This document shows positions 1 to 51,722 of a stretch of DNA of 64,000 nucleotides, piece after piece (within the stretch, counting starts at the first letter, position 1; each line of letters begins with the position of its first letter). Under the pieces are notes generated by a model. That model did no database searches and was not told the origin of the DNA. It worked only from the letters and a program-made list of their open reading frames with translations. This DNA comes from Squalus acanthias. Its lineage: Eukaryota. The stretch spans positions 33,792,001 through 33,856,000 of the forward strand of contig CM059432.1 in NCBI GenBank assembly GCA_030390025.1, written 5' to 3'. The position numbers were made by a program, and so were the translations under genes.

Positions 1-154
1 AAGCAATGGCTAGCATTTAAAGAATTAATACATAATTTACAACAAATATACATTCCTTAAGGCACAAAAACCCCACAGGAAAAGTGGTCCAACCGTGGCT
101 AACAAGAGAAGTTAAAGATAGTATTAGATCAAAGGAAGAGGCTTATAATGTTGC
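1..154 (+). mobile_element. CR1-like LINE ORF2 fragment
   Basis: Near-identical to CR1 segments at 11400-11480 and 20545-20600 (ccgtggctaac..agaagttaaagatagtattagatcaa..gaagaggcttata). Confidence 0.7.
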
Positions 155-389
155 TAACATCTTCCAGCCTTTCTAAAATTCCCATTTTTTTGCTCCAAGA
201 GGGAAATGGAGCGCAAAATCAAGCGCTTCACTTCCTTCTTGGAGTGCAAGAGGGGGGGAAGTTCACGACCCGGGGTGCACAGCTCAGCAGCGCCACGCAC
301 TGGGCTGCGCGGCGCTGACGTGTTGCAGGGGCTCTTCCCTGAATTAAAGGGAAGGGCCCCACGCTGCAAACTCTGCAGTTTTTTTTTAC

Positions 390-3300
390 TTACCAGTGTG
401 GTAAATAAGGTTGGTGAGCTGCAGGCGCAAATAGACACATGGGAATATGATGTTGTGGTGATAACAGAGACCTGGCTCAAAAAAGGGCAGGATTGGGTAC
501 TAAATATTCCTGGATATAAGGTGTTCAGGAAAGATAGGGAAGGAAAGAAAGGAGGTAGGGTGGCAGTATTGATTAAGGAGAATATTACAGTGCTGGAGAG
601 AGAGGATGTCCTGGAGGGGTCAAGGACAGAATCTATTTGGTTAGAGTTGAGAAACAATAGAGGTGCCATTACACTACTAGGTGTACTCTATAGGCCGCCA
701 ACTAGTGGGAAGGTTATAGAGGAGCAAATTTGCAGGGAAATTACAGAGAGGTGCAAGAACTATAGTACTGATAATGGGGGACTTCAAATATCCTAATATA
801 GTCTGGGATAGTAATAGTGTAAAGGGCAGAGAGGGGGAAGAATTTCTGAAGTGTGTTCAGGAGAACTTTCTTGATCAGTATGTTTCCGGCCCAATGAGGA
901 AGGAGGCATTGCTGAATCTGGTTCTGTGGACTGAGATGGGTTAAGTGGATCAAGTGTCAGTAGGGGAACATACAGGGAACAGTGATCACAGTATCATAAG
1001 GTTTCGATTAGCTATGGAAAAGGACAGGGAGCAATCTAGAGTAAAAATACTTAATTAGAGGAAAGCCAATTTCAATGGGTTGAGAATGGATCTGGCCCAG
1101 GTAAATTGGAATCAAAGATTGGCAGGCAAAACTGTAATCGAACAATGGGCTGCCTTTAAAGAGGAGATGGTTCGGGTACAGTCGGGGTACATCCCCACGA
1201 GTGGGAAAGGTAGGGCAACCAAAGTCAGAGCTCCCTGGATGATGAAAGAGATAGAGAGTAAAATGAAGCAGAAAAAAGGAGTGTATGACAGATGTCAGGT
1301 TGAGAATACAAGTGAGAACCAGGCTGAATATAGGAAGTTCAGAGGGGAAGTGAAAAAGGAAATAAGTGGGGCAAAGAGAGAGTATGAGAATAGATTGGCA
1401 GCTAACATAAAAGGGAATCCAAAAGTCTTCTCTTGGCATATAAATAGTAAATGGTTAGTAAGAGGAGGGGTGGGGCCGATTAGGGACCAAACTGGAGACC
1501 TACACATGGAGGCAGTGGGCATGGCTGAGGTACTAAATGAATACTTTGCATCTGTCTTTACCAAGGAAGAAGATGCTGCCAAAGTCATGGTGAAAGAGGA
1601 GGTAGTTGAAATACTGGATGGGATAAAAATTGATAAAGAGGAAGTATTAGAAAGGCTGGCTGTACTTAAAGTAGGTAAGTCACCAGGACTGAATGGGATG
1701 CATCCTAGGAGGTAATTGCGGAGGTACTGGCCATAATCTTCCAATCCTCCTTGGATACGGGGGTGGTGCCAGAGGACTGGAGAATTGTAAATGTTACACC
1801 CTTATTCAAAAAAGGGTGTAAAGATAAACCCAGCAACTATAGGCCAGTCAGTTTAACCTCGGTAGTGGGGAAGCTTTTAGAAATGATGATCCATCCGGGA
1901 CAAAGTGTGGCTTAATTAAGGGAAGCCCGCACGGATTTGTTAAAGGCAAATCGTGTTTAACTAACTTGATTGAGTTTTTTGATGAGGTAACAGAGAGGGT
2001 TGATGAGGGCAATGCAGTTGATGTGGTGTGCATGTACTTCCAAAAGGCATTTGATAAAGTGCCACATAATAGACTTGCCAGCAAAGTTGAAGCCCATGGA
2101 ATAAAAGGGACAGTGGCAGCATGGATACAAAACTGGCTAAGTGACAGGAAACAGAGAGTAGTGGTGAACATTTGTTTGTCGGACTGGAGGAAGGTATACA
2201 GTGGTGTTCCCCAGGGGTCGGTACTAGGACTACTGCTTTTCTTGACATATATTAGCGACTTAGACTTGGGTGTACAGGGCACAATTTCAAAATTTGCAGA
2301 TGACACAAAACTTGGAAGTATAGTGAACAGTGAGGAGAATAGGGATAGACTTCAAGAGGACATAGACAGGCTGGTGGAATGGGCGGACACGTGGCAGATG
2401 AAATTTAACGCAGAAAAGTGTGAAGAGATACATTGGGCTCAATTTTCACTGGCCCGTGGAGGCGGGTTTGGAGGCGGGAGTGGTGTGAAAATAGCAGATT
2501 CGGGGGTCCCGAACCCATCCCGCCCCCAACCCGCCTCCATGCCAGTTTCCCAGGAGGCGGGTACCCGACCTGTGCTGGGACCCGCCTCCCCGAGGCGGGA
2601 AGGGGATTAGTGCCTAATCCCTATTTTTAGCCCTGAAGTGTGGGCTTCCCAACAGGTCCGAACCACGCCGATTTAGCAAGGCGGACCGTCAGTCTGGAGG
2701 GCTTGGAGGGGTCGAGATGTCCGGTGTGCAGGTGAGTGATGGGTGCATGAGTGCAGAGGTAAGTGTGTTTGGTGTGTGTAAAGTGTTTTAAGAACTTTTA
2801 CTTACCTTAACTTTATCCTGCAGGCTAGCTTCCTTAAGGTGTCGGGAGTCCCTCACATCCACGGCACAGAAAGCAGAATGGCCGCGGAGCTGTCAAAAGC
2901 TGCAGTCTCTGCTTTCTGTGCTGGATTGATTTCTAACTGAGTCCAAGTACAGGGACTCACGTTAGAAATCATATTGTCAGTGTTTGACAGCTTCACAGAG
3001 TGTCAAACGCTGAAATTTCATCTGTCAAAAGCTCTTGACAGATGAAATTTCAATGGCTGATGTCACCTATATCCAAGGGACCCTTGATTGGCCTGCTAAG
3101 CCCGCTGGGCGGGCTTAACAAGGTCAATCAAGGGAAAATACAGTGGGTTGGCCACAAGTCGATGGAGGCGGGACTACAACCCAAAAAGTGGGAGTCCTGC
3201 CTCCATCACGTCCCCATTGACAAAATCCAGCCAATTATGTTCGGAAGAACAAGGAGAGGCAATATAAACTAAAGGGTACAATTCTAAAGGGGTGCATGGA

Positions 3301-3502
3301 CAGAGAGACCTGGGGGTATATGTGCACAAATTGTTGATGGTGGCAGGGCAGGTTGAGAAAGCAGTTAAAAAAGCATACAGGATCCTGGGCTTCATAAATA
3401 GAGGCATAGAGTACAAAAGCAAGGAAGTTATGATGAACCTTTATAAAACACTGGTTCGGCCTCAACTGGAGTATTGTGTCCAATTTTGGGCACCGCACCT
3501 TT
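390..3502 (+). mobile_element. CR1-like (HER1-type) LINE ORF2: APE endonuclease + reverse transcriptase, frameshifted; split by a MITE at 2435-3233
   Basis: ORF pieces contain ITETWL, YRPP, FQKAFDKVPH, GVPQGSVLG, SKFADDTKL and VRPQLEYCVQFW; multiple stops/frameshifts. Confidence 0.93.
2435..3233. mobile_element. Non-autonomous Harbinger-type DNA element (MITE) inserted in CR1 RT
   Basis: Left end GGGCTCAATTTT, right end AAAATCCAGCC (rc GGCTGGATTTT); flanked by ATT/ATT; CR1 reading frame resumes after it. Confidence 0.75.
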
Positions 3503-3682
3503 GGAAACCGGCTGATGACGCATCATCAAATGACATCACCAGACCCATGTCCTCTAATTGGCTGGCAAACATGCTGGGTGGGCTTAACAAGCCCAATCTA
3601 GGGAAATTCATTTCAGAAGCCGGGATGGAGACAGCCTGCCACGTATCTGCTGAGGTCAGCAAAATCGCGACCAAAGATTCTA

Positions 3683-4372
3683 AATAGTGGGGAACCAGGG
3701 TCTAGTGAGAATGAGGAACTTCAAGAAATTAGTATTAGTAAAGAAATAGTACTGGAGAAATTAATGGGACTAAAAGCCAGCAAATTCTCTGGACCTGATA
3801 GCCTATATCCTAGGGTTTTAAAAGAGGTAGCTACAGAGATAGTGGATGCATTGGTTTTGATCTTCCAACATTCCCTAGATTCTAGAATGGTCCCACGAAT
3901 TGGAAGGTGACAAATGTAACCCCGCTGTTCATGAAAGGAGAGAGAGAGTAAACAGGGAACTATAGGCCAGTTAGCCTGACAGCTGTAGTAGGGAAAATGC
4001 TAGAATCTATTATTAGGGACGTGGTAACAGGGCCCTTTGAAAATCATAGTATGATTCGGCAGAGGCAACATGGATTTATGAAAGGGAAATCATGTTTGAC
4101 AAATCTGTTAGAGATTTTTGAGATTGTAACTAGCAGGGTAGATAAGGGCGAACTAGTGGATGTAGTATATTTTGATTTTCAGAAAGCATTCAATAAGATG
4201 CCACTCAAGAGGTTATTACACAAAATTATGGCTCATGGGATTAGGGGTAATATATTAGCATGGATTGATGATTGGTTAATGGACAGAAAACAGAGAGTAG
4301 GAATAAACGGGTCATTTTTGGGATGGCAGGTTGTAACTAGTGGGGTAGCGCAAGGATCAGTGCTTGGACCTC
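3683..4372 (+). mobile_element. CR1-like LINE RT fragment
   Basis: ORF 3997-4392: QHGFMKGKSCLTNLLE, DFQKAF, GVAQGSVLGP. Confidence 0.9.
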
Positions 4373-4406
4373 TGATGTGTCCTGTGGCCTAGAGCCATTT
4401 GGTTTA

Positions 4407-4600
4407 TGTGGTAACACAATACAGCTTCCTGTGACTCGAACTTTATTGCATCACTTCCTGTGATTAGTCCAGGATAAATACTGGACTGATCAGTTGGATC
4501 CTGGAGAGGCATAGAGTAAGACCTCTTTTGTATGTAGCACCTTTTTAGTTGATTAAAGCTTACTTTAAGTTCACCACGCGTAAGGCTCATTCTTACGACA
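4407..4600 (+). repeat. Gypsy 5' LTR
   Basis: TGTGGTAAC...TTACGACA, direct repeat of 8681-8874. Confidence 0.97.
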
Positions 4601-4678
4601 ATTTAATCAACTTTGGAAAACTTCGCACTCAAACTTTTTGGACGAACTCGGAACTAAGGATCCAGGGAATCACCCATC

Positions 4679-7600
4679 ATGGAAAACATCCTTAAACCAT
4701 CGCGTCTTGACTTGGACCCAAACACCCCAGCAGCCGGTAAGGTGTGGAAACACTGGTATCGCACGTTTGACAATTTTCTGGAATATTGTAAGGCTGATGA
4801 TGACTCAAAGTTGCGGATACTCATCAACTGTGTCACCCCGAATGTATTTCAGTATGTGGAGGAATGGGGCAGTTACGAGGAGGCAATTTGGAAGCTTAAG
4901 AGACTATATACTAAGACACCGAATGAGGTCTATGCCAGACATCTACTTGCTACAGCCCAACAAGGGCCGGAGGAATCCATTGATAAATTCCTCCAAGAGC
5001 TTCGCAGACTTAGTATGGACTGTAACTTTCGGGCGGCCTCAGCTGAGCTGTACCGTGAAGAAATGATCCGTGATGCTTTCATCTGCGGGCTTGCCTCCCC
5101 ATTTATACGCCAGCGTCTACTGGAAAGTAAGACACTTGAGCTTCAGAGAGCTTATGACATGGCTTGCTCTCTAGATCTGGCAAAAAGAAATGCAGACCTT
5201 TATACAGTGCCCAGACCTCGGTCTACTGCCTTAACTACAGTCAGGCAATTTAAGAGGCCACAGGTGAACTCTATTAGGGAGGTCTTTATCCCTGACGATC
5301 AATCTGATGACTTCACTGATGAAGAGGATGATGACCCCACTGTGGCAGCCTCTTGGCAATCTAAGAAATGCTTCTTTTGTGGTGATGAGTTCCACCCTCG
5401 GAAATTCTGCCCTGCTCGCAATGCGTTTTGCAGTCATTGCAACAAAAAGGGTCATTTTGCAAAGGTTTGCCTATCAAGAGCCTCTACGAGGGCTTATCAA
5501 GCTAAGTCCTACCGAACTGCCCCGGTAAGGGCCTATCAAGAAGTTCCGGCTAAAATCTATCGTGCTTCCTCTCGAAGAAACACACCTAGAGTTTCAGCCA
5601 CTCTTTGTGCAACGACACCAATTACAGCTGCTTGTCCTCAGAACCTATTCCATGCAGCTACAAAAGCATCAATTAATGGACATACTTTAGATGCCTTAAT
5701 TGACTCAGGTAGCACTGATAGTTTCATTAGGGAACAGATTGTTGCAGAGTTAAAGCTACATGTTTTCCCATCGGACCAGGCAGTTGCGATGGCTCAGTCA
5801 TCACTTAATACCAGAATTTCTGGCTTTTGTATGGTTGAAATAACACTTAATGGTCGCAGGTATCCCTCCACCCGGCTTTCGGTGCTCAAGGACTTATGTA
5901 GTGATCTTATCTTAGGGCTGGATTTTCAAAAGCAGCATAAGAAGCTCACCATTGAGTTCGGCGGATCCAAACCTGAACTCACTATTTCTAATATACTACC
6001 TCGATTACCGTTCTGTGCATTGTCAGCAGCTTCACTGGATGAACCCTCACTGTTTTCCAGTATCCCTCCTCGATGCAAACCGATTATAACAAAGTCACGA
6101 CGTTTCAGTCAGGAAGACCAGTCTTTTATTGCGGCTGAGATTTCTCGGCTTTTAGCAGAGGATATCATCGAGCCTTGTTCGTCGCCATGGCGCGCCCAGG
6201 TCGTTATTGTTAAGAACCCTCTACAACCTCACAAGAAACGGCTGTGCATTGACTATTCACAGACCATCAATCAATATACGGACTTGGACGCATACCCATT
6301 GCCGCGCATCGATGATATGGTTAATAAATTGGCTGAGTACACGGTGTTCTCAACATATGATCTAAAAAGTGCCTATCATCAGGTACCCTTGAAGGTCTCA
6401 GACAAGCAGTATACGGCCTTTGAAGCCAATGGACGGCTGTATCAATTTCGTCGCCTCCCCTTTGGGGTCACTAATGGAGTGGCTGTCTTCCAGCGAGCAA
6501 TGGATGACCTGGTCAAACAGGAAGACTTGAAGGATACGTTTCCTTATCTGGACAATATTACTGTCGCAGGTCGCAATCAGCGGGAACATGACGCCAATCT
6601 CCAACGATTTTGGGATGCACTCCAGCACCGTAATTTGACATTAAATGCGGCTAAATCCATTGAGTCACAACCAACCATCAACATCCTTGGCTATTGTGTG
6701 GGCAATGGCATCATTAAACCTGACCCTGAAAGGCTTCGCCCACTCCAAGAACTCCCGCCACCTAAGAATCCGGCCTCCTTGCGCCGGGCCCTCGGCCTGT
6801 TTGCATACTATGCTAAATGGATTCCTAACTTCTCGGACCGAATCCAACCTCTACTGAAGGCCAGCACATTCCCACTAGACACAGCGGCTGTTGCAGCCTT
6901 TAACCTCCTGAAAAAACAGTTGGAGAAAGCGACTCTTCACTCCATCGATGAGAGTCTTCCTTTTGTCGTTGAGTGTGATGCCTCGGAGGTGGCGATCTCG
7001 GCCACTCTGAATCAGGAAGGTCGTCCGGTGGCATTTTTGTCCAGGACTTTTCAAGGGGCTGAGCTACATTATCCTCCAGTCGATAAAGAAGCTACAGCCA
7101 TCATAGAGGCAGTACGGAAGTGGAGTCACCTCCTAGCTCGCCAGCACTTTACCTTAATCACGGACCAATGATCGGTCGCCTTCATGCTCGATAATCGAAA
7201 ACGGACCAAAATTAAAAATGATAAAATCCAGCTTTGGCGGCTAGAATTGGCCTCTTTTGGTTACACCATCCACTATCGACCTGGCAAGGAGAATGTGGCT
7301 CCAGATACCCTCACACGAGCATTCTGCTCCGCCATGGCACCCTCTACGCTCGTAGACATCCATGATGGGTTGTGTCATCCGGGCGTTACTCGCATGCTAC
7401 ACTTCGTGCGGTCCCGAAATCTCCCATTCTCTACCGGGGATGTAAAGAAGATGTGCTCGGACTGCAGAGTCTGTGCGGAATTGAAACCTCGGTTTTTCCG
7501 CCCCTCGGGTGGTATACTCATACATGCGACCCAGCCAATGCAACGGCTTAGCATCGATTTTAAGGGGCCGTTGCCCTCTTCAACTCGCAACACTTATCTA

Positions 7601-8617
7601 TTGACCATGGTCGATGAGTATTCCCGTTTTCCGTTTGCCTTTCCCTGCCCCAATATGCTGACGACCACGGTTATCAGCTGCCTTGAGCAGGTATTTGCTT
7701 TCTGTGGCATGGCATCCTATGTTCATTCGGATCGGGGCCCTTCTTTTATGTCAGGAGAACTCAAGGCCTATCTCTCGGAACGGGGTATTGCTGCCAGCAA
7801 AACGACGCCTTATCATCCGGTCGGGAATGGGCAAGTCGAGCGTTTTAACGCTATCATCTGGAATGCGGTACGTCTGGCTTTGAGATCTCGGGGCCTACCC
7901 AACCAGCAATGGGAAGCAGTACTTCCAGACGCATTACACTCCACACGGTCCCTCCTTTCGACCGCCACAAATACAACGCCTCATGAACGGTTCTTCCGAT
8001 TTCAGCGTCGCTCATCCTATGTGATATCTCTCCCGTCGTGGCTGACTGCACCGGGACCAGTGCTACTCCGAAGATATGTCTGGGCGTCTAAGAATGACCC
8101 TCTGGTAGATGAGGTTGAGCTCACTGACGTCAACCCTACCTACGCCTATATTCGGTATCCTGACGGTCGGGAATCTACCGTGTCATTGCGGGATCTGGCT
8201 CCCTGCCCGCCGAAACATAGAGGGACACCAGGGGATGATATTGTACCAGGCACATCTCTGGGCTCGCCAGGTGCCTCTCATCACGATCTGGATCTGACGC
8301 CGGCTGGTACCTCACTCCAGCGTGCCGACCTGGGGCAGACTGACTATGAGCCCGTCGGGGCTCGCACGCGCAGCCACGATCCACCCTGTACCGTACGCTC
8401 GGAAACGGATCTGCCACAGCCCTGCCCGACACCCGTTCGGGCACCAGTACACAGTCAGGATCGTCCTGACCCCTCACAGAGCGGGCTGGATCACTCGGAC
8501 TCTGGTCCACGGCCCGCGGCGGGTAAACGGGCTAGGGGCCCTCTACCGCTACAAGAACCCAAACGGGTGCGGCTCTCCCTCGTCCAGCGGCTACGAAATG
8601 GAGGGAGAATGTGGTAA
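4679..8617 (+). pseudogene. Gypsy gag-pol polyprotein (Gag with 2 CCHC knuckles, protease, RT, RNase H, integrase) with one in-frame TGA at 7169-7171
   Basis: CFFCGDEFHPRKFC/CSHCNKKGHFAKVC, LIDSGS, YLDN RT motif, CDAS RNase H, HHCC + IDFKGP/SDRG/VER integrase; ORFs 4679-7171 and 7184-8617 share a frame. Confidence 0.95.
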
Positions 8618-8680
8618 CACAATACAGCTTCCTGTGACTCGAACTTCATCCCGGCCTCCTAATCTTTTGGTGGGGGAGAA

Positions 8681-8874
8681 TGTGGTAACACAATACAGCT
8701 TCCTGTGACTCGAACTTTATTGCATCACTTCCTGTGATTAGTCCAGGATAAATACTGGACTGATCAGTTGGATCCTGGAGAGGCATAGAGTAAGACCTCT
8801 TTTGTATGTAGCACCTTTTTAGTTGATTAAAGCTTACTTTAAGTTCACCACGCGTAAGGCTCATTCTTACGACA
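8681..8874 (+). repeat. Gypsy 3' LTR
   Basis: Matches 4407-4600; preceded by PPT, followed by TSD. Confidence 0.97.
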
Positions 8875-8994
8875 GTTTATATTTGCACTGTTTGAGGGTA
8901 ATTTTATCCTACTCTGTCTGGTGGGAACTGGCGTGATCAGATTGTCCTCTCGTTTTACAGTACATCCGATTGTAATCAATACAAATATGGAGAA

Positions 8995-36952: not shown

Positions 36953-38044
36953 TGTAAGGGGTGACCTGCGGCTCTGTGCTTAGCCTGGGTGCTAGTGCGA
37001 GGTTAGGCCTTGTTGCCTGTTCTGGTCTCCAGCCAGCCTGGTAACACTAGACACCTGTGAGTGGTTCGACCCACTCGCCCTTACGGTTCTGTCACTGGAC
37101 TTAGGTGCGAGAGCAATAATGCAGAGAAAAACTCAGGTAGACCCGGTCGAATAGTGCGAAATGGAAAATCTTTATTGCATATTATTCAAGATTACGAGAT
37201 ACATGTCATAAGCACAGATTAATGACAGTACAATCTTACACACAGTTATGTAACTAATTTTAGGGAAACGAGGAGCGCATGACACATCGTAAAAAGGGAC
37301 ACACATTATACTTATCCTTAAAACTTAAACCCTCCCCTATCAATACCTGTCCTAATCTAGATTTGTAGGATCGAGACTCATGCTCACCACTCGTGATAAC
37401 TCGGAGAATTCCGAAACTCTGCTCGGATGTTTTTACCGCAGCACCTGACTATCCACGTGCTGATCAGGGGTCTCTGTACCCCACTTGTTTACTCGTTTCT
37501 GCTCCGGCTAGCAGGCTGGACCGTCTGCTGTCATGAAGATCTGTGTTGTCCTCGGAGTTCCGATACTACTCGAAAAAGAGTCTTCCTGTGCCCTCACCAG
37601 TTTGTAAAATTCAAAGAAAGGTCTTCCTGGGCAAGGAAGTGTTTATTCGACTTACAGGCGCGGTCGGGGCTTACTGACCGTGGCGATGCGTATTGTCGTC
37701 TTCTTCTCTTCTCATCTCATCTCATCTCCTCGGTACAATAGCCCTTATTCTCACCTGGGAGACCGATTCCAGTATTTATGTATAAAATGCAAACCCATCA
37801 TGTCTTGTGAATTATCTCAAATGTGCTGAGTCCTGTACGATCTTGCACAAATGTTTATTGGAACGCCATCTTGTCTGCCCATTGAAAGTCTAGAACCTTC
37901 TGCCACGAGGCGTGGCGGCCATTTTACAGGCTGTTTGTGTCCGCTTTGAAACCTGACAGCATTCTGCTGAAATAAAGCTGTTTGTACGAAACTTTATGTC
38001 TCCTTCTTATTTTATAAAATCGCGATAATTTTGCGAATTCTACA
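36953..38044 (-). repeat. ERV 3' LTR (1092 bp; lacks 559 bp present in the 5' LTR)
   Basis: Colinear with 51723-53373 except for 52502-53060; about 4 substitutions counted by eye. Confidence 0.95.
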
Positions 38045-38055
38045 GTCCCTCCTGT
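38045..38055 (-). promoter_or_regulatory. ERV polypurine tract
   Basis: Minus strand ACAGGAGGGAC immediately precedes TGTAG of the 3' LTR. Confidence 0.75.
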
Positions 38056-38904
38056 TGATGCGAATAACTCCGCTTATCGTATCAAAAATATTGTGGTGAG
38101 CAATATTATCTCGATTCTCCACATCCAAAAATTCCCATAACTTAAAACTATCTAGGGTCTCCGTGTCGTCCTTATTTCCCAGGAAAACTACATTCTTATA
38201 ACACCATAGGAAGCATTTGCCTTTAACTTACACCGCGTGTATTTCCTTCCAGGTGTAACCAGGCCGATGCCTCTCGCACCACCTGCATATGCATATTTTT
38301 TTATTCAAAGAAAAAAGAAAACAAAAACCAACCAAACAATCATATTCAACAACACCAAATCAAATTAATCAAAACCAACTCTTAAACATGTAGGGGTAAA
38401 AATTCAGTTGGTTGCGCCTCCCGTTAGCGCCTTAAATGGGCGCTAATGGGGCGTTAAGGCGCTAACGCCCGGGCGCAGCGCTGTTTGCGCCGCTCGAGAA
38501 CTTAACTTGAGATTGTGCGGCGGCGCTAAAACTTACCGCTGCGACCACCTGCGCGCGCAGATTGTGACGTCAGTCCGTGGTGCAACGCCCTTGGGGCGCC
38601 CCGGAGCGGAAATTGAGTGGCGCCCCCTGCCTTACCGCCTGGCGCTTCCAACGACCGGAAGACTGGAACGTTATCAATCGGTCTGGGGCTGGGGGGGGCG
38701 CTATTTAAAGGGGGCCTCTTCCTGTCTTTTTCTGTGGTCGACATTTATGCACCACTCGTTCTGAGAGAGAGAGAGAGATTCGGAGAGAGAGAGAGAGAGA
38801 CTTCTACATTGACTCAACGCTTTGTGAGGTAGTTTTGCCTAGTTCATCCTAACTTTGCTGCTACTTTCGTTGCTGTACCTCATTACTTTTCTGGCAAAGA
38901 GAAG

Positions 38905-40065
38905 ATGGGGGCTGCAATGATTGGGGGCGTCGTCCTGCTCCAGCTCAATCGGAGCAGAGTGAGACGCAGACAGAGAGTGGCAATGATGGCCAGACGGAGG
39001 AGGCCCATCAGGCGCATGTACAGGAGAGCTTACCCTCCCAGGGTATATCGTGAACAGCTCTCCTACATCCACATGTCCGAGGAGCTGTGTTTGCGAAGGC
39101 TGCGATTCAGCAAGGAGGTGGTCACTGAGCTCTGCCACCTGCTGCAGCCAGATCTGCAGCCTCAGCTGAGGTCCAGGACGTCTCTGTCGGTGGCAGTGAA
39201 GGTCACAGTGGCCTTGAACTTCTACGCCACTGGCTCATTCCAAGCTGCTGTTGGGGACCTCGCCAATATCTCCCAGTTTGCGGTGCATCGCTGCATCCGG
39301 CAGGTCACCAATGCCCTCTTCACAAGGAGACGAGACTTCATCTCCTTCCCTATGACCCCAGACAAGCAGCATGACCGTGCTATGGGCTTTGCGAGGGTAG
39401 CGGGCTTCCCCATGGTGCAGGGCGCCATTGACTGCACGCATGTGGCTTTGCGTGCTCCGCGAGAGAATGCAGAGGAGTTCCGGAACAGAAAGGGGTTCCA
39501 TTCCTTGAATGTGCAGTTGGTCTGTGACCACAGACAGGTGATTCTCGCTGTCAATGCCCACTATCCGGGCAGCTGCCACGATGCTTTCATCCTGCGCCAG
39601 AGTACTGTGGCAGAAATTTTCGAGGCACCGCATCAGCCAGTTGGTTGGCTTCTGGGGGACAAGGGGTACGCATTGAGCACCTGGCTGATGACACCGCTCC
39701 GTACGCCAAACACCCCTGCTGAGCTGCGGTACCAGGAAAGCCAACAAGCAACGAGGAACATTATTGAGCGCACAATCGGCGTGCTCAAACAACGATTCCG
39801 CTGTCTGGACCATTCCGGAGGAGCCCTGCAGTACTCGCCTGAGCAAGTTTCCAAATTCGTAGTGGTGTGCTGCATGTTGCACAACATGGCAATCCTCAGG
39901 ACGCAGCCAATGCCACCAGGCCTTGCAGCACCACAAGAGGAGGAGGAGGAAGAGGAGGAACAGGCCGAGGACGATGATCAGCAGCAGCACCAAGGCAGGA
40001 GGGCGGCCCACAATGGTCAAACTGCAAGGGCCGTCCGTCAACGACTAATAGCAAGCCGCTTCTAG
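38905..40065 (+). CDS. Harbinger DDE transposase (HARBI1-like), intact 386 aa
   Basis: [55 protein letters not shown] motifs; no stops. Confidence 0.96.
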   Translation: MGAAMIGGVVLLQLNRSRVRRRQRVAMMARRRRPIRRMYRRAYPPRVYREQLSYIHMSEELCLRRLRFSKEVVTELCHLLQPDLQPQLRSRTSLSVAVKVTVALNFYATGSFQAAVGDLANISQFAVHRCIRQVTNALFTRRRDFISFPMTPDKQHDRAMGFARVAGFPMVQGAIDCTHVALRAPRENAEEFRNRKGFHSLNVQLVCDHRQVILAVNAHYPGSCHDAFILRQSTVAEIFEAPHQPVGWLLGDKGYALSTWLMTPLRTPNTPAELRYQESQQATRNIIERTIGVLKQRFRCLDHSGGALQYSPEQVSKFVVVCCMLHNMAILRTQPMPPGLAAPQEEEEEEEEQAEDDDQQQHQGRRAAHNGQTARAVRQRLIASRF

Positions 40066-40359
40066 GGCCCCTGCCAGTGCTACAAACACGAATCAACCCA
40101 GCACGCAACCCCTAAGCCGGCCAAGGCACCAATAATTCCAACCACCAGCCATGTATATTTTGAATACAGAAACTTATTTATTGTACAAACTCTGTGTGTG
40201 TCAATTCCTCATGACAAACTCATAGAAATAAACACAAAAAAACAGTCAATAACATAACTGGTTCTCACAACCTGGAGATAATGTCCAAAACACTAAACAA
40301 AAGTTGGGCCATGAACCTCGGCCTTTAATAAAAAAATGACCAGCATTTTGGCACACCTC

Positions 40360-42323
40360 CTACTTTTTGCCCTTCGAGGGTGATCTCCTTCCCTTGCGCA
40401 CTTCCCCCCTTCTAACCCTACTGCTCCTCCGTAATGGGACCTCAGTGGCTGCAGCAAGGCTGGTGGAAGGCTGCTGCTTGTCACACCCTGACACTGCAGA
40501 TGCCCCTGAAGGACGGCCTCGACCACTTCTGGGCCTGGAGGGCCCGGCTGCAGACTGCACCAACTCTGCATGGGCGGCAGCAGTCTGTCCTACAGGCGGT
40601 GGCAAGTGCAGTGGAGAAGTGACAGTGTTGGCAGCAGGAATGCTGTCATCGTGAGAGAGGACAGCAACTCCCTGCTCGCCCGACACACTGGCACTCCCAC
40701 GGGGCAGCACTTCAGCATCCGGAGCAATTTGCCTGAGAACAGATTGCTGGCCTGCTGCGGCGCGGTGACAGCCCCGGGGACATGTGCACGAACCATCGAG
40801 GATGGCAGCAGTCAGTGCTCGCGTGGCCTCAATCTGAGTCTGCATGAGAGCAGGCTCAGATGGGTTCCTGGCAGCCAGTGACTGAATTGCAGCAGTAAGC
40901 TTTAGTGTGGCATCCGCCTGTGCTACAGCGAAGTGCTCCACACTCCTTGCCAGTGCCTCAATGCATTCGGGCACCCTTCCCACTGCACCCATGAGCTCAG
41001 TGTGCATGACCACCGCCTGGCTGTTCATTTCTGCAATCAGCCGCTCCTCCTCTGCGTCCATTGCATTAGGAGTGTCTGGCATACTCTCCCTCTGGGGAGA
41101 AGGCTCCCGTTCTTCCCTCCCCCCCCCATGGCGTTGCTGCAGCCCGCTGGGTCCTGGAACTTCACCATCATCAGCCCCTTCCCCCCTGCTCCCCCGTTCT
41201 TCCCTCCCCCCCCCATGGCGTTGCTGCAGCCCGCTGGGTCCTGGAACTTCACCATCATCAGCCCCTTCCCCCCTGCTCCCCTCCGGGGAAGGCGTGTTCC
41301 CAGTGTGGCCATGGGCTTCCTCGGGAGAGGGTGGCACTGATGCTCCGGCTTCCTCTTCCTCCTCAGCTGCAGCATCACTCCCAGTGGCAGCTTCAGGGAC
41401 CATCTCCTCAGCTGGTGAATCACCATCTGAAAGCAGGGAGGTACAAGAGTGGCTTTAGCGTGAGGACAGGGTGGCAGTAAGGGAGGAATAAGTGCAGCGA
41501 GTTAGCAAGTTGGATTGAAAGTGTCAAAGGCTGGTATTGTGAGGGACAAGTGGAAGGACAGAGGACAAAAAGGTGATGACCTTACCATTGCTGTCCACAA
41601 CGGGGTCGGCGTCTCCAGTGGCGACGGGACCGATCACCCGGCTTGCCACAATCCTGTGGACGCGCTCCTCCAGATCGCTGAGGGGTTGCAGCTGAAGCCG
41701 CCCTCCACCCGTCCGTTGCTGCTGTCTCCGATTATGAGCCAGCTTAGCCTGCAAGAAAAAGGACAGCATCTGAGTCAATATACAGCCATGGTCTTGCCTG
41801 ATGTGCCTCCCATAGGTGAATAGCCCTTACAATATGCAGCCATGGTCTTGCCTGATGTGCCTCCCATAGGTGAATAGCCCTTACTGTATGCAGCCATGGT
41901 CTTGCCTGATGTGCCTCCTATAGGTGAATAGCCCTTACTGTATGCAAAGTGTGGAATGTGTGTGTGTGTTTGATGAAAGGGCCATAGGTGTTGGATGAGT
42001 GTTGTGCATTGGGGTTTTAAGACCCTCTGGCCATAGAGTGAGGTTGAGATGGAGGGATGGAGAGGTATTGAGAAAAAGCCACTCACCCTGACGACCCGAG
42101 TGAGGTCGTTGAACTTTTTGCGGCACTGGACATGGGTCCTGGGCACCATGCTCCTGGAGGAGACGCTCTGAGCCACCTCCCTCCACACTCTTCTGAACTC
42201 GCGTGGCAAAGGCCTCCTGCCACTCTCTGGGAACAGCATGCATCGTCTGCGCTCCACTGCGTCAACCAGAGCATCCAAGGCCCGCTCGGTGAAGCGATGA
42301 GCGCGTTCTCTCACCCTCTCCAT
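40360..42323 (-). CDS. Harbinger Myb/SANT-like DNA-binding protein, 3 exons (42323-42087, 41748-41586, 41426-40360), ~488 aa
   Basis: RFTERALDALV..WREVA..RTHVQCRKKFNDL trihelix motif; GT-AG introns with matching phases (0 and 1) give an uninterrupted frame. Confidence 0.88.
41104..41281. repeat. Tandem 87-bp in-frame duplication in Myb-like exon 3
   Basis: GSRGEGADDGEVPGPSGLQQRHGGGREER occurs twice. Confidence 0.9.
41778..41946. repeat. ~54-bp x3 tandem repeat in Myb-like intron 1
   Basis: cagccatggtcttgcctgatgtgcctcccataggtgaatagcccttac repeated three times. Confidence 0.92.
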
Positions 42324-42781
42324 GCTTGGCAGCAAAATGGATTACAGGTCTCTCCAGGCTGAGATTCAAGGCTGCAATGAGCAGGGTGTGGCTGGGGAGC
42401 AAGTGGCCCCCCCCGCTTTAAGAAGTGTCCGGCGCCAGTGTGTCTGTGTTCCCTCGCTAACTGGCAGCAGCTGCGCTGCGCTCGTGCGCTGAGTTAGCGC
42501 CTCACTCCTAGGCCTTTGCGCCTTAAGAGAGGTGTGCAGCGCCTAATTTAGCGCTCCACTCACCTCCCGGGGCGGTAAAAGTGAAGTTTCCTGTCAGTGC
42601 CGATAATTAGCGCCAGGCGCTAATATTTGCGCGCGGACGATATTTGCGCCCCAAATGGGGCGCGACCTAATTTCTACCCCGTAGAGTTCCAAACTTAATT
42701 ACAGTTTCTGAGAAAAATCACGATCGATTACAACACTTCCGAGACGCACGTGGAAAACTGGAGTGACGCCATTTTGTCTGT

Positions 42782-45292
42782 TTACGCGGTGCTTTCATTG
42801 TGCACGCGCACGTAACGTTCTCGCCACTCTCCCGTGTTTTCGTTCTTGGTGAGGCGTTTGCCTCTCTTACAATGCACGACCAATAAGTATATCACAATAA
42901 ACACTTGGCATACAACTAAAATGTGGGAGGCTATTCTAATCCAGGAAGGCACTTCAATGTTGGTGAACAGATTCCACCACGGTGGAATTACTATGTCCAG
43001 AATTTCTGTCCCTATCTCGACAGTCTTTTGTTCTAGGGTGTAAAAATGTTTTTGCGATACCGCGACGGCTTTCAAAAGCTTGGTGAGGTGTTCAGGGAGA
43101 GGGGGAATGAGGTATCCGAAATGCGCGACGAATCGCTGCAGGTCGGTGAAGTTCTCTTTTACTGTGAGATGAACCGTGGATGGTTCAGGGATCGGGACAA
43201 TTCGCTGTTGTGCTACTTGAACTTCCGCCCTGGGTTTGAAACAGAAACTGCTGTCACTCACCGGACACCGGCTACGGTTTCCATGTTGGTAGTGTTGCGC
43301 TGCAGTGGTAACACAATATGTTCCACCCCCGATGTATGCTACCTGCGGAGGCACATGATCTTGTGCCATTGCCTCCATGGTGCAATTCATGGGCTTGGCG
43401 CCAGCCGTTCTGAACCCGCACTGTGGTGTTAAAAAGGCATTCAAGTGCTGGGGACACAGTATTATGTGTGCTCCCCGGCCACGACAACCAGAGAGATCTG
43501 TACCTGTCATCGTTTGCTCCCAGCGGATGACGTAAGGTGGAACCGCTGCATAGCGAATGTGGGCTCCCCCATGAATGACACCAATGTTCTCTACCCGGTA
43601 CACCGGGGCGGGCTTTGCTGTGTCGCCCAAAACCGGCATACGTAATACTATACCCATGATGGTATGGTTTGATCGTCCGCAGTCCACGGGGACTGGGTAT
43701 GCTTCTGAAGCTAGTCTGAGCTGGCACGGGTTTAATGCGTTCTGAAAAGGGTGGAGCGCCTGCAGGTGTTTGTTACTTATCCAGGACGGGACCAAACCTT
43801 GTTTTAAATCCTCCAAATTACTGCGGCCCTCGCCCAGTAACCACGCCCCGTAAAGCACGCACACCTCATTCTGCGCAGCCTGATCGGACGCATTCCGATC
43901 TTCCCTAATCAGGGCATTTACCGTACGCGCATGTTTCTCTAGTTCAGCTATTATTTCTTTTAAATGGAGAGTCATGGCCTGGTCCTCGTGTAACCCAGAC
44001 CCAACCACCTTATTTTCATCTGTGAGGATGTTCTTCAATTGTGTTTTTAAGCCATTAATCTGGGTCTGCAGCTCCACGCTGTCTAGAGCGTTGACCACAG
44101 ATGTACCTGTATTGAAAGCAGTGAACATGTCGTTCACAACACCCCTTCTTTGCCTCCCCACCTGATCCAAAACTTCATGTGGTGCGGTGTACAAACTTGT
44201 TTTATCAATTTCCGCGAAATCGAACTCATAAAATTGTCTAAACATCTTGGTCAACAGGACCTGATATAACTGTTCCGTCTTTTTGGGGCACCACTCTGGT
44301 AACCGCACCTCGGTGAGATTTAAAATCACCGAGGCCACCGCGTAATGTACCCCCTGAAATAGTATCTGGTCTGTGGGGACCAGTACCAAACCATTCCCGG
44401 GTCCCTTACTGGTTTTAGGGCACCCTTCTTCCTTGGCTAGAACCACCGGAATCGTGGGCGGGGCTTTGCGTGGGCGCGTAATGAGTTCAGTGGCATTTAC
44501 CGGGATCAGAGAGTATGGGGCTCCGCACCCACTGGTGCTCGCATCCCACCTCATCCCCTGTCCGTTATCCTGCCATTGATTGATGAAAAATATGGAGATG
44601 CCTTTGGGGCAAACGTGCTTTGACCCCCACATACATACATAAATTCCCTCATCCGGTTCCCACCATTTGTCCCAACAGACTTTCAATTGTCCGTTAGTCC
44701 CCATAATTGTCCGATGGGTATTGTTACCCAACCGCTCCCACTCGACCGAGGAGTTTCTCATATTCTTGCTTAACTTTCGTAGCCACCACCATCGGCTCAA
44801 TAGGACATTCCCATTACAAGTCAAACAAATCCGTTTGCCGACGGTGACGCTGACTCTGGGTGCGATGATCCTCACTTTGGGGCACATTAAAGAAGTCTCT
44901 TTGTAGGCAAAACCCGATGTACTGGAATACTCAGTTGAATTCGTTCCCAGCCATCCTGGCCACTTTCCCTTGTGGAAATAGGTGGTGGTCTCCTCAGCCT
45001 CTCGCCTTCCGGTCCCATCCACCGCGATGGGGGCCGTGTCCCCGGAGCATCCAAACACCACGACATCCTTGGTGCGGCCTCGATAGGCCAATCCACATCC
45101 GATTGCCGCGAGCAATACTAGAATTCGTTCCATCCTTCCTTGGTTCCTGTGATCAGATAGAATGAGGTAGCCAGCCTCCCAAGAGTCTCTGGCTTTTGTG
45201 AAGGGTGAGCGGGTCCCCTGACCTCGCCTCTCGTAAGAAGACATGTGCGCTGGATAGACTTTAACTATTCCTATCTCTAAAACTCCCATCAT
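42782..45292 (-). CDS. env: Envelope glycoprotein (class I fusogen, F-like); probable true start Met at 45133
   Basis: Signal peptide MERILVLLAAIGCGLA, furin site RQRR then GVVNDMFTAFNTG fusion-peptide-like stretch, heptad repeat, Cys-rich region, TM ILVVCQVFIVIYLLVV, short tail; ORF fully open. Confidence 0.92.
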   Translation of the reverse strand: MMGVLEIGIVKVYPAHMSSYERRGQGTRSPFTKARDSWEAGYLILSDHRNQGRMERILVLLAAIGCGLAYRGRTKDVVVFGCSGDTAPIAVDGTGRREAEETTTYFHKGKWPGWLGTNSTEYSSTSGFAYKETSLMCPKVRIIAPRVSVTVGKRICLTCNGNVLLSRWWWLRKLSKNMRNSSVEWERLGNNTHRTIMGTNGQLKVCWDKWWEPDEGIYVCMWGSKHVCPKGISIFFINQWQDNGQGMRWDASTSGCGAPYSLIPVNATELITRPRKAPPTIPVVLAKEEGCPKTSKGPGNGLVLVPTDQILFQGVHYAVASVILNLTEVRLPEWCPKKTEQLYQVLLTKMFRQFYEFDFAEIDKTSLYTAPHEVLDQVGRQRRGVVNDMFTAFNTGTSVVNALDSVELQTQINGLKTQLKNILTDENKVVGSGLHEDQAMTLHLKEIIAELEKHARTVNALIREDRNASDQAAQNEVCVLYGAWLLGEGRSNLEDLKQGLVPSWISNKHLQALHPFQNALNPCQLRLASEAYPVPVDCGRSNHTIMGIVLRMPVLGDTAKPAPVYRVENIGVIHGGAHIRYAAVPPYVIRWEQTMTGTDLSGCRGRGAHIILCPQHLNAFLTPQCGFRTAGAKPMNCTMEAMAQDHVPPQVAYIGGGTYCVTTAAQHYQHGNRSRCPVSDSSFCFKPRAEVQVAQQRIVPIPEPSTVHLTVKENFTDLQRFVAHFGYLIPPLPEHLTKLLKAVAVSQKHFYTLEQKTVEIGTEILDIVIPPWWNLFTNIEVPSWIRIASHILVVCQVFIVIYLLVVHCKRGKRLTKNENTGEWRERYVRVHNESTA

Positions 45293-45424
45293 TTTACCTC
45301 TTTCTGTTAAAAACCTTAAACTACAAACTTAACCTGATTTAAGAACTATAAACTTGAACTTACAAAACTTATCAACTTATCACTTATCTTATAACTGTAC
45401 AGTGCCGCCCGTTCCCAGGGCGGC

Positions 45425-48400
45425 CTACTCAAATTCTGCGGTTGCCGCCGCAGGCTTCTCCCAATGGGGGGGGGGGGCACTGACCCCTCCCTTTGATCTG
45501 CCGCAGCCTGTCGCTGCTGCGCTGGGGCTGGGATCTCCCTGAGCTGCCTTGACCTTGAACTTACGTCTGGGGACATATGGGGGACTTACCCAAATCTTTC
45601 TGGGCTGGGGTTTCCGACTTGACCTACGGAGAACTACCGGGGGCAGGAACTCCAGGACTGACGGACCGGGTTTTGAGACTTCCAGCGTGGTGACCCGTGG
45701 TCCCACCACAGTCGCTGGCTCCGCCTCCCCTGACTCCGCCTCCCTGAACTCGGGATCTGCAGCTTGTGGCACCGCCCTACTTGGCCCAGTAGGCGGCCCT
45801 TCACTCGCAGTCCCTACCTCCCTCGAGGGCAAGACGTTCAAGGCGGGCGGCTCGGGCTCTGAGGCTTCCATCGCCACGCCCTGTGGTCCCACCACAGCGG
45901 CTGGCTCCGCCTCCCCTAGCTCCGCCCCCCTGCGTTCGGGACCTGCAGCTTCGGCCTCCACCCTTTGTGGATCTCTATCTGTCTCCCCTATACCTGAATC
46001 GGGGGCGACCCTTTCGTCCTCCGATTCCAGCTCCTCCTCGCTTGTGTGACTATCTTCGTTGAGCTCCTCGAGCTCTTCCTCATCTGACTCCCAACCCAAA
46101 TAAAGGATCCTACATTTTTCTAGGATGTCCTCTCCCCTAACGCAAGCTGCTTTGCCTGCCTGTGTGCCCTGTGGCCCTACCTGGGGCTGCGAATCCCCAC
46201 TCGCAGGTTTGGCCCCTGTGGTAGGCCCTTGTGCACCCGGCTTATACAGTTTGCACTGATTTACGTGGAACCACTTAGTGCGCCGAGGTACCTTTACGGC
46301 GTATACCATGGGACTCGCCTTATCTACAATGCTGTAGGGTCCCATATACAGTGGTTCCAGACTCCCTACTCTGGCGTAGTTTCTGACCATGACCTGGTCT
46401 CCTACTTCCCACTCCCGCTTTTTGCGGGGTTCCAGCAACAGGCGATTGCCCTGATGCTGCCTTCCCATGTTCCCAGCCGCCTGCTCATAAACCTGCTTCA
46501 GGTGCTCCAAGAGGGTCTGGACGAACTTGTCCCTGCTTACCTCTTGGAGCTGACCCTCAGTGAGCACCGGCGCTAGCACATGGGTGGGGGTTCGCATGAT
46601 CCTCCCAGTCATCACCTCGTGCGGGGAATACCCCGTACTTTTCGACTGACTGGCCCGGACCCCCATGAGGACTAAAGGCAGAACCTCCGCCCATTTTTGG
46701 GGCGAGTTCATAGTCTCTTTCCTCAATTTCTCCTTCAGGGTCCGGTTCATGCGTTCAACAATCCCGGATGACTGGGGATTGTGCGCTACGTGCCATTTCC
46801 CTTCAATGCCCAAAAGCATGAGGGTGTTCTGCATCACCTGGCCGGTGAAATGACTCCCTTGGTCTGACTCCACAAAACGGGGAAGTCCCCACCGCGAGAA
46901 CACTTCCTGGACCAAGATTTTTGCAGTACCCAGTGCCGTAGCTGTTCTACAGGGGAAGGCTTCCACCCATTTGGAAAACACATCCACCAAGACGAGGCAG
47001 TATTTATAGCCTCCCTGGGTGGTGGGCAGGGGCCCTATATAGTCGATCTGTATTGACTGCCATGGTCCCTCTACCCTCCTGATGTGCCCCATGGGCACTT
47101 TCCTTTTCTGGGGGTCTGGGTTGTTTGCAGCGCACACGAGACAGCTTGCACAGAACTCGCGGACCTGCTCCCTGAACCCCGGCCACCATCCCGCTTGCTC
47201 TACCCGTTGCCAGGTAACCTCGGGCCCGGGGTGCCCTGCCCCAGGTCCCTCATGAGCCAACTGGAGGAATTCCCTCCTGTGCTGCTGCGGCACAACCCAC
47301 TGCTCCTCGCGGAACAGCATGCCTTCCTTAACGGAGAGGGTTGCCGTACTGTACGGACCCTCTACCTGCTTCCCCTCAGCAATGGTTCTGAGAACTGCTT
47401 TTAGGGCGGGATCCTGATTCTGGACGGTCTTAAGGTCTAGGGGCAATGCTACCCTGGTGTTCCCGGAATTCCCGTCCCTGCCTTGGATCGCTGCCACGGG
47501 TCTGGGCCCATAGGGGTCCCAGAAAGTGCCGTTACGGGCACCCTCCCTGGCTAGCGCATCCGCCTGCTGGTTGCCTTCCCCACGGGGCTCTGTGGTGGAG
47601 TGAGCCTTCACCTTATGGATGAAAATCTCCCCTTCCTCCCTTACTGCTGCTAGGATCTTTTCCAGCAAGGGCTTCACCGTTAAAGGTCGTCCGTCCGCGG
47701 AGGTGTATCCACGGCGGGACCAAATGGCCAGGTATTCCGTACACGAATTGCATGTGAACATACTGTCCGAGCAAATCGTGTATGGTGTTGGGAAAGTTTC
47801 TGGGTGGGTAACGACGTACACCACTGCAGACAGCTCCGCCTGCTGCGCGCTCATGGTGCTGGGGAGCTTAATCGCCAGGGCAAGGTTTGCCGCAGGGTCA
47901 TAAACTCCGCACCCTGTGAGTCGTTCGCCAGCGGACACTGTGCTGGAACCATCAACATAAATCTCGCGCCCAGTGGGATGTATCCCGGCCCGCAAACCTA
48001 TGTTGACTTCCCACACCCCTTCCACCGAACACTGGTGGGCTGTACCGGGGTATACCAAATTGGCCGCAAGCCTGGGCTCGCAAAGACCTTTAATTCTAAG
48101 ATCCATCTGGGAAAGGAGAAGGGTCCAGCGCGCAATTCACACGCTGCTTACGGTCCCATCCTTAATCCTCCCATCTAGAAGCATCTTAGTTGGTGTGTGA
48201 TGGGTGAGGAGAGTGATGGGAGAGAGCCCTGTGAAGATTGCTGATCTTTTCACAGACCAATGCGTGGCTAAAAGGTGCCTTTCGCAATTGGAGAAACTTC
48301 TCTCCACATCCGTTAACACCCTGGACGAATAGACAACCGGCCTCAGCTTGCCGTAACGCTCTTGGAGCAGCACAGCGCTCAAGCTGTCCCCGCTGGCAGC

Positions 48401-49912
48401 TACCTCCAGGAAAAACTCCTTCCCCCCATCTATGGCCCCTAAAGCTGGCGCGGTCTGCAAATCCCTTTTTAACTTCTCGAAGGCTGCCTGGCAGCCCTCG
48501 TCCCAAGACCACTCCACTCCCTTATGGAGGAGTCGGAGCAGCGGCGCCGCTGTGGCCGCATAGTCTTCGATAAAATCCCTGCAGTAACCGGTCAGTCCCA
48601 AAAAGGACCTCACACCCCTTATGGTGTTGGGAATCGGTAACTCTTGCACCGACTCCCTCCTAGCCTTATCTATGGCTCTTTCCCCAGCGCGAATGGTCAG
48701 CCCCAGGAATTTTACTTCCTGCTGACCGATACGTGCTTTCTTAGGGTTCACTTTAAAACCCTTTCTCGCTAGCAGCTCCAATAACTCGGCCAGCAGTGGT
48801 CCATGCTCCTCCCTTGAGTCCGTAAATAGGAGCAAATCATCCACGTACTGCACTATCTGATTGGGCTGACTAAACTCCTTTAAACTTCCTGCCATACACT
48901 GATGGAAAATACTGGGGCTGTTGTGGAAACCCTGTGGCAGACAGTTCCATGTGTACTGTTGTCCTTTGAAAGTAAAGGCAAACTTGTACTGGTCCTCTCG
49001 CCGCAGCGGGATGGACCAAAAACCGTTCGAGATATCCAGCACCGTGAACGTGGTCGCGGACGCTGGGATACTCCCTATTAGGTCAGCAACTGCTGCTACC
49101 GTGGGCGCGCAGGCGGGAATGTTACTGTTAAGGACTCTGTAGTCCACCGTGGCCCTCCACAAATTATCCGGCTTCCTAACCGGCCATAATGGGGAGTTCA
49201 CGTGTGTGGCTATCGGCCTCAACACGCCCTGCTGCACCAAGGAGGACATTGCTGTCTCCATATCGGGTTCTGCTTCTTTGGGGAAGTTATACTGCTTTTG
49301 GGGCCGGGTCATGGGGTCCCCATCTACGCTGACCTCAAACCCGGTAACCCTCCCACAATCGTGCTTGTGGGTTGCAAACGCGTGCATATTATCTGACACG
49401 TACGTTTGCATGTCCGTTGGGACATCCGCGACCATAAGCCCGAGGTCGTAGCCTCTGGATGGCTTCATGGTACACAGGGCCCCTTTACCTTCCTCCTCCG
49501 GGATTACCACTACCTCGCCTTTTCCACCCTTAGCTCCCCAGAGACAGTGATTCCTGAGGTCCACGAGGATCCCGTGCCCCGATAGGAGGTCTGATCCGAG
49601 GATGCCTCTCCCACCCCCCTCTTGCCATTTCATCAGTATGCACTTCCACGTGGTGTGGAGTGCTCCTAAATGAATGGATAGCGGAATGGAGAACGCGCCA
49701 GCCTGCTCTTTTCCCGTGAACCCCGCTAATGTGTATGGGACCTTGGTAGATAGCGGTGAGTCAAAAGGGCTATCCGTATGAATCACGGTGCATGAAGCTC
49801 CCGTGTCCAACAAATAACTACCCTTCTGTTTCGCTACCTCCATCTCCACCAGGGGTCGCTTCCACGCATCATAGCTGAGCGGACACAAGTAGACGGGCTG
49901 TGCGGGCTCTAG
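45425..49912 (-). pseudogene. pol: Pro-Pol: protease, RT, degenerate RNase H (tether), RNase H, integrase with long tail; one in-frame TGA at 48137-48139
   Basis: LLDTGAS, LPQGFHNSP, YVDDLL, FFLEVAAS (tether), YVDGSS/AQQAEL/SDS/GNQQAD, HHCC + IDYIGP/SDQG/IVERMN; ORFs 48137-49888 and 45425-48106 share a frame. Confidence 0.94.
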
Positions 49913-51718: not shown

Positions 51719-51722
51719 TATC

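Follow-up and report, generated by a model that had tools for sequence, protein, structure and literature searches.

A young Ty3/Gypsy retrotransposon of Squalus acanthias carries, just downstream of its 5' LTR, a site that pairs perfectly with a segment of that same LTR, and the two sequences covary across 23 related families. The covariation, together with the fixed register of the site and the absence of a TGG site, supports the original prediction that the element primes its own reverse transcription. Judged from these sequence comparisons, self-priming of some kind is very probable, and a Tf1-like version, in which the primer would come from the 5' end of the RNA, is the form that we moderately favor. 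To our knowledge, self-priming has been proven only in fission-yeast elements, and it has been regarded as characteristic of the Tf1/sushi chromoviruses.

Structure of the element

The element occupies positions 4407-8874 (4468 bp) on the + strand of the 64,000-nucleotide stretch of S. acanthias DNA that was analyzed (the window); all of its features described below lie on this strand. It is a Ty3/Gypsy LTR retrotransposon by its TG...CA LTRs, its target-site duplication and its protease-RT-RNase H-integrase order. The 5-bp duplication, GTTTA, is found at 4402..4406 on the left and 8875..8879 on the right, and the two LTRs of 194 bp each (4407..4600 and 8681..8874) show 0 differences over their length. 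A single gag-pol frame at 4679..8617 encodes Gag with two CCHC knuckles, protease, RT with a YLDN motif, RNase H and integrase, the last four enzymatic domains being recognized by Pfam. This frame is interrupted by one in-frame TGA at 7169-7171, within RNase H. A PDB search returned Ty3 RT as the best match (E 1.7e-44), and the ESM Atlas matches of the element were generic RT clusters only. The polypurine tract lies at 8669..8680, directly before the 3' LTR. Further upstream, at 8599..8646, is an extra purine tract followed by a repeat of the first 37 bp of the LTR (8610-8646), which may be the record of a template switch at the start of plus-strand synthesis. An Rfam scan of 4380-4720 returned nothing beyond one chance-level match.

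The S. acanthias genome holds 797 candidate copies of the family. We consider the family young, because all 40 copies that were scored, the window copy included, are 100% identical over 314 bp. Many copies in this genome retain open frames of ~1320 codons. At one locus (G000:C6:72600456-72626705, L139) five family copies lie mostly ~5.7 kb apart in what is apparently a tandem array.

A primer-binding site complementary to the LTR

The final CA of the 5' LTR is followed by a one-base spacer, A, at 4601 (A in 21/23 families) and then by the predicted primer-binding site, TTTAATCAACT, at 4602..4612. As had been proposed, this site is the exact reverse complement of a segment in the element's own LTR, AGTTGATTAAA at 4547..4557, the predicted self-primer; the match has no extension on either side. 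A second copy of the primer segment is present in the 3' LTR at 8821-8831. The 3' end of the predicted primer is oriented toward the LTR end, as required for priming. The claim that no TGG tRNA site follows the LTR also held: TGG is absent directly after the 5' LTR, and a TGG at 4614-4616 varies within the family, with position 4616 being G in 37 junctions and A in 6. The perfect match of site and segment is kept in 42 of 43 junctions among the fetched family copies.

We compared copies in the S. acanthias genome that differ at primer position 7. Seven are changed in the 5' LTR, six of them there only and one in both LTRs with the site unchanged; the other seven are changed in the site, six with both LTRs unchanged and one unreadable. 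At L053 both LTRs are changed and the site is unchanged. No copy changed at this position in the S. acanthias genome is compensated, a result that does not separate a 5' from a 3' origin of the primer.

Covariation of segment and site across related families

Among its relatives, those with names belong to cnidarians, a catshark and three kinds of crustacean, namely shrimps, a mantis shrimp and a copepod; no relatives were found in the viral contigs scanned. The metagenome set comprised 80 loci, of which 41 had a Gag start and 39 were testable, two having been dropped for missing upstream DNA or a weak match. Perfect pairing of 11-19 nt between the site after the CA and the upstream LTR was found in 32 of the 39 testable loci, and shuffling of each passing locus gave a match as good as its own in no more than 1 of 200 trials. 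Among the seven failing loci, L050 (one change in the site) and L059 (which lacks one base at the LTR end) are members of passing families, L042 is truncated by the contig start, and in L085 (290-310) and L086 the primer segment is reduced to its 3' part, the remnant adjoining what we take, from its appearance, to be a DNA-transposon end. Upstream of Gag at L077 and L079, the site pairs only imperfectly with its own LTR, which suggests a decayed copy or another primer in this family.

For tests of specificity we used 23 families, namely the 21 passing metagenome families and two from S. acanthias, with the L042, L077/L079 and L085/L086 families excluded. The highest pairwise identity of the LTR ends in this set is 62%, and there are 19 different 11-mers. 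The site lies almost always 1 nt past the LTR end, the LTR boundary being confirmed by a second LTR in 11/23 families and the register taken from the best pairing elsewhere. In the paired core, 252 of 253 cells are Watson-Crick and none is G-U. Because core pairing is in part a matter of construction, specificity rests on swap and permutation tests. Families pair with their own partner over a mean of 14.5 nt, as opposed to 5.0 nt for swapped partners, only 10/506 of which reach 11 nt. The own partner is strictly best in 17/23 families, and the remaining six share their 11-mer with another family. Permutation tests for covariation gave p<=0.0003 at positions 4-9 and 11-13 and p<=0.0007 at positions 15-16, and were not significant at positions 1, 14, 17 and 18. 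Covariation of the two 11-mers, the check named in the original prediction, is strongly positive by both tests.

These results leave chance complementarity in AT-rich sequence with a negligible probability. Both 11-mers are indeed AT-rich, but a match of at least 11 nt to 4602-4619 arose in only 17/20000 dinucleotide shuffles of the LTR region of the window copy, the swap test across the 23 families refutes chance, and the permutation test also speaks against it.

Individual cases point the same way. L099 and L051 differ by one base in both LTRs and, correspondingly, by its pairing partner in the primer site. The second S. acanthias family (81% RT-RNase H identity, 215-bp LTR) shows 13-nt pairing in 8/10 loci, the exceptions being one locus whose 5' LTR carries a deletion and another that could not be delimited. 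Visual inspection finds the same layout in two further families, on MAG contigs. Other Gypsy elements of S. acanthias have TGG sites and self-matches of at most 7 nt. The lineage members L198-L202 sit in bacterial MAG contigs, most likely as eukaryotic contamination.

Features of the primer segment and a model for self-priming

In the window copy, the first A of the primer segment (4547) is held in an initiator-like TTAGT and is the candidate transcription start. An A is found at -11 in 18/23 families and a G at -10 in 22/23, preceded by pyrimidines, a context that we liken to the initiator consensus TCAKTY described in PMC3601003. The YYAG motif was also considered as a 3' splice site, a reading that was dropped because AG is missing in 5/23 families. 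No TATA box was found in any of the 23 families, and the window copy has none within 60 nt of the segment. At its other end the segment terminates in a poly(A)-signal hexamer, AATAAA or ATTAAA, in 12/23 families; in the window copy ATTAAA forms its last six bases (4552-4557). Directly 5' of the segment is a T-rich stretch with two TGTA words (4529..4546), which we presume may act as an upstream element for 3'-end processing.

The segment is followed directly by R and then C in 22/23 families, and these bases often open a hairpin. A hairpin just 3' of the segment reached p<=0.05 in 6/23 families (Fisher 2e-5); in the window copy, folding places it at 4558..4570 (4558-4562 with 4566-4570; family p 0.08), where it abuts the 3' end of the primer. 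A second predicted stem-loop close to the LTR end (4579..4597) is not conserved among families, reaching p<=0.05 in 2/23. Of the three duplexes in the Tf1 'pretzel', the two flanking ones (leader-to-loop and U5-end) were not above shuffles in a folding-based test that weak duplexes may escape (2/23 families each; Fisher p 0.17 and 0.63).

Under the Tf1-like model, transcription would start at 4547 or a few bases upstream, the front of the RNA would fold onto 4602-4612, and a cut after 4557, beside the small hairpin, would free a 3' OH. In Tf1 it is RNase H that frees the primer (PMC7175516, PMC5341516, PMC11042837). RT would then copy the rest of the LTR and jump to the 3' repeat. Copying of the primer during plus-strand synthesis would keep the site an exact Watson-Crick match, in the way reported for Tf1, where the primer is copied into the site at this step (PMC11042837); we read the absence of G-U in the 253 core cells as a sign of such copying. 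The last six bases of the primer would also serve as the poly(A) signal, masked in the 5' copy but exposed in the 3' one.

The same hexamer raises the question of whether the pairing serves some other job, such as masking the poly(A) signal of the 5' LTR or shaping the leader, while another RNA primes. We regard this as quite improbable. The paired segment does end in AATAAA or ATTAAA in those 12 families, but the other 11 keep the pairing without a hexamer there, masking would need neither the 1-nt register nor the absence of G-U, and no alternative primer site is present.

A second point concerns the end of the RNA from which the primer would be taken. Most relatives pair over 13-16 nt, position 13 being paired in 20/23 families and position 16 in 16/23, and pairing beyond 11 nt would fit either a longer primer, starting 2-5 nt further upstream, or an origin in the 3' repeat. 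Self-priming by the 3' repeat copy, at the U3-R junction of the same or a second RNA, is a possibility to which we give a rather low probability. In its favor, covariation reaches past the initiator-like A at -11 to the upstream positions 12, 13, 15 and 16, the bases beyond -11 are always present in the 3' copy, and the start is not fixed by any TATA box. However, the longer pairing is accounted for just as well if transcription begins 2-5 nt further upstream, and in the window family the pairing ends exactly at the initiator-like A.

Likeness of the primer segment to tRNA-Ile(AAT)

Searches of the S. acanthias genome for a tRNA with the exact primer sequence gave 3 pattern matches, as opposed to 1 in the control, and none was called a tRNA by ARAGORN. 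One of the three is a decayed tRNA-Ile(AAT) gene, which led us to a likeness between the primer segment and the D-loop of this tRNA. Nucleotides 14-24 of tRNA-Ile(AAT) pair 11/11 with the window site, two of the pairs being G-U, with an energy of -9.2 kcal/mol compared with -9.8 kcal/mol for the element's own segment. In the same register, the D-loop pairs over 11-13 nt in 9/23 families. A good match of the post-LTR sequence to a host tRNA, internal fragments included, had been named as evidence against self-priming; such a match exists in part for the window family, when G-U is allowed, but not for 14 of the 23 families, in which pairing covers at most 10 nt with tRNA-Ile(AAT) but 11-18 nt with the family's own LTR. 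When tRNAs are scored with a weight matrix built from the LTR segments, the tRNA-Ile D-loop, together with the GC past the primer end, obtains p 5e-5 per tRNA, a value that becomes ~0.003 when ~50 tRNA types are allowed for and that belongs to a match spotted after the fact.

This likeness makes it conceivable that a 5' fragment of tRNA-Ile(AAT), with its end at nt 24 and annealed via its D-loop, acts as the primer, with the LTR segment as a mimic or relic. The pairing in the window family and in the nine families speaks for it, as do the weight-matrix score and the abundance of this tRNA sequence (294 matches to its 25-base core in the S. acanthias genome), and internal tRNA primers are described for copia groups (PMC6317226, PMC5445492). 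We nevertheless judge it very improbable. The match is post hoc, from a comparison that covered six anticodon types, and copying of this tRNA into the site would give C opposite both G of the G-U pairs, whereas T stands opposite one of them in 22/23 families. Only 2/9 sampled Ile(AAT) genes carry a fully pairing loop. Because 14 families misfit, the T is kept in 22/23 and 7/9 of the sampled Ile genes differ in the loop, tRNA-Ile probably does not act as the main primer at present. Its likeness to the segment may be left over from the segment's origin, or may have come about by chance where an initiator meets a poly(A) signal.

As a speculative scenario that we hold to be unlikely overall, the lineage, widespread in aquatic animals, would have left tRNA priming independently of Tf1/sushi through an LTR mimic of a once-used tRNA-Ile D-loop that combines the roles of start site, primer and poly(A) signal, with tRNA-Ile perhaps still a backup in some families. 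If so, the D-loop mimic would be a switch from tRNA priming to self-priming caught in the act.

Placement of the lineage among Gypsy elements

Self-priming in this element would be of particular interest if it lay outside the Tf1/sushi clade. Its description as a non-chromodomain element proved correct, Chromo and SH3_Tf2-1 domains being found in 0/18 lineage proteins at E<=0.05. Its description as YLDN-type fits the RT of the window copy but not the lineage as a whole, which also shows YLDD, YMDN, YVDN, YIDN and others. A Gag capsid profile built from 61 lineage proteins scored 85-92 bits with Mag-like elements, at most 13.8 with chromoviruses and at most 19 with every other labeled group, in a target set of 367 chromovirus versus 52 Mag-like RT segments. 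'Mag-like' is our label for elements with NCBI K02A2.6-like names and TGG sites, a group that we take to be the Mag lineage. The zinc-knuckle profile of the lineage also matches Mag-like elements best, and the integrase profile gave 103 for chromoviruses as opposed to 125-140 for Mag-like and several other groups.

RT trees were built with FastTree (202 rows) and with IQ-TREE under site mixtures (50 rows). The chromoviruses in the RT tree were ten plant and algal ones, with named Tf1/sushi, fungal and vertebrate members and named Mag absent; homologs retrieved from chromovirus seeds were plant and algal proteins only. When the S. acanthias genome was searched with Chromo, SH3_Tf2-1 and an algal chromovirus RT, none of the elements retrieved could be identified as a chromovirus. 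Both trees place the RT of the lineage on a long stem, apart from the chromoviruses and from nine Mag-like RTs (IQ-TREE support 100/100, 100/99 and 100/98, respectively). The best RT tree joins the lineage to the Mag-like group with support of 37/43. In AU tests, two nestings among the plant and algal chromoviruses were marginally rejected (p 0.044), and a position as sister to them was not (p 0.225). A place outside the chromoviruses is supported by domains and Gag and weakly by the RT tree, whose chromoviruses are plant and algal only. From these comparisons, the lineage is probably not Tf1/sushi, though its priming probably works in a similar way, and it likely descends from tRNA-primed Mag-like elements and not from chromoviruses.

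Within the lineage, the window RT-RNase H is 69-75% identical to P0003-P0021, which include soft-coral relatives, and 60% identical to the catshark protein P0111, which belongs to another subgroup. These values hint at horizontal transfer among marine animals. Basal branches of the lineage (P0246, P0182, P0233 and P0256) stand at 39-47% identity.

Comparison with known elements

Tf1 and Tf2 of Schizosaccharomyces pombe, Tj1, Tosmo and the Tf1/sushi chromoviruses likewise have an LTR-complementary site directly after the 5' LTR (PMC7175516, bioRxiv 10.1101/2022.12.06.519325, PMC4600332), and the pairing of 11 nt in the window family is as long as in Tf1. The lineage differs from Tf1/sushi in having no chromodomain or SH3 domain, a Mag-like Gag and an RT on its own long branch. 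Further differences are the pairing of 13-16 nt in most families, the lack of detectable pretzel duplexes and the poly(A) hexamer at the end of the primer segment in 12/23 families. Self-priming in the lineage is a prediction from sequence.

Likeness to the Mag lineage is seen in the Gag capsid and zinc-knuckle profiles and, with low support, in the best RT tree. It extends to the compact size of 4-5 kb, the short LTRs and the 5-bp duplications described for Mag (PMC3286476). Mag is reported to use tRNA-Ser or tRNA-Leu sites (PMC3286476), whereas the lineage lacks TGG in 23/23 families; the Mag-like copies in the S. acanthias genome have TGG sites as well. RT-RNase H identity between the lineage and Mag-like elements is ~30%.

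Self-priming has also been predicted from similar LTR complementarity for Tcn1 (Gypsy) and TAR (Copia; Houba, Osr-1) of plants and fungi (PMC6317226). Tcn1 is a chromovirus related to Tf1/sushi and TAR belongs to Copia, so neither is a non-chromovirus animal Gypsy, but TAR indicates that self-priming can arise outside Tf1/sushi. In the papers that we consulted, self-priming is linked with Tf1/sushi, with Tcn1 and, among Copia elements, with TAR (PMC6317226, PMC5006619, PMC5445492, bioRxiv 10.1101/2022.12.06.519325, PMC4600332, PMC7175516, PMC5341516, PMC11042837). We found in this literature no account of self-priming in a non-chromovirus animal Gypsy; Repbase and subscription journals lay outside its scope, and a prior mention is possible there. 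MolGy and PolGy, from molluscs and annelids, are described as unplaced marine-invertebrate Gypsy clades, some of which group with Mag (PMC6238403, PMC8556966), and our lineage may be one of them. The main texts of these two papers contain no mention of primer sites, and five supplement files of PMC6238403 held no match to a lineage sequence.

It is likely that self-priming in this lineage arose separately from that of the yeast elements known for it. If true, this would be a separate origin within Gypsy, in a large non-chromovirus lineage that is young and present at high copy number in a vertebrate genome, and its tRNA-primed cousins would make the switch from tRNA to self-primer open to comparison. 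Self-primed elements would presumably also lack the target site of 3' tRNA fragments.

Other elements in the window

Another LTR element, whose long repeats are nearly identical, occupies ~36953-53357 on the - strand; its RT served in the trees as an outgroup only. Its ORFs, all on the - strand, encode a Gag-like protein (50201-51772), protease, RT and RNase H (48137-49912), a second RNase H with integrase (45425-48136) and an envelope-like protein of 848 aa (42782-45328) that has no match in Pfam. We take it to resemble a lokiretrovirus-type provirus. Inside it, at 38833-41454, are a Harbinger-like DDE transposase (410 aa, PF13359) on the + strand and a 364-aa ORF on the - strand. The Gypsy element itself is surrounded by many fragments of LINE RT and endonuclease, which occur in window positions 1-4372 and again from 9180 on and are presumably of CR1 type.
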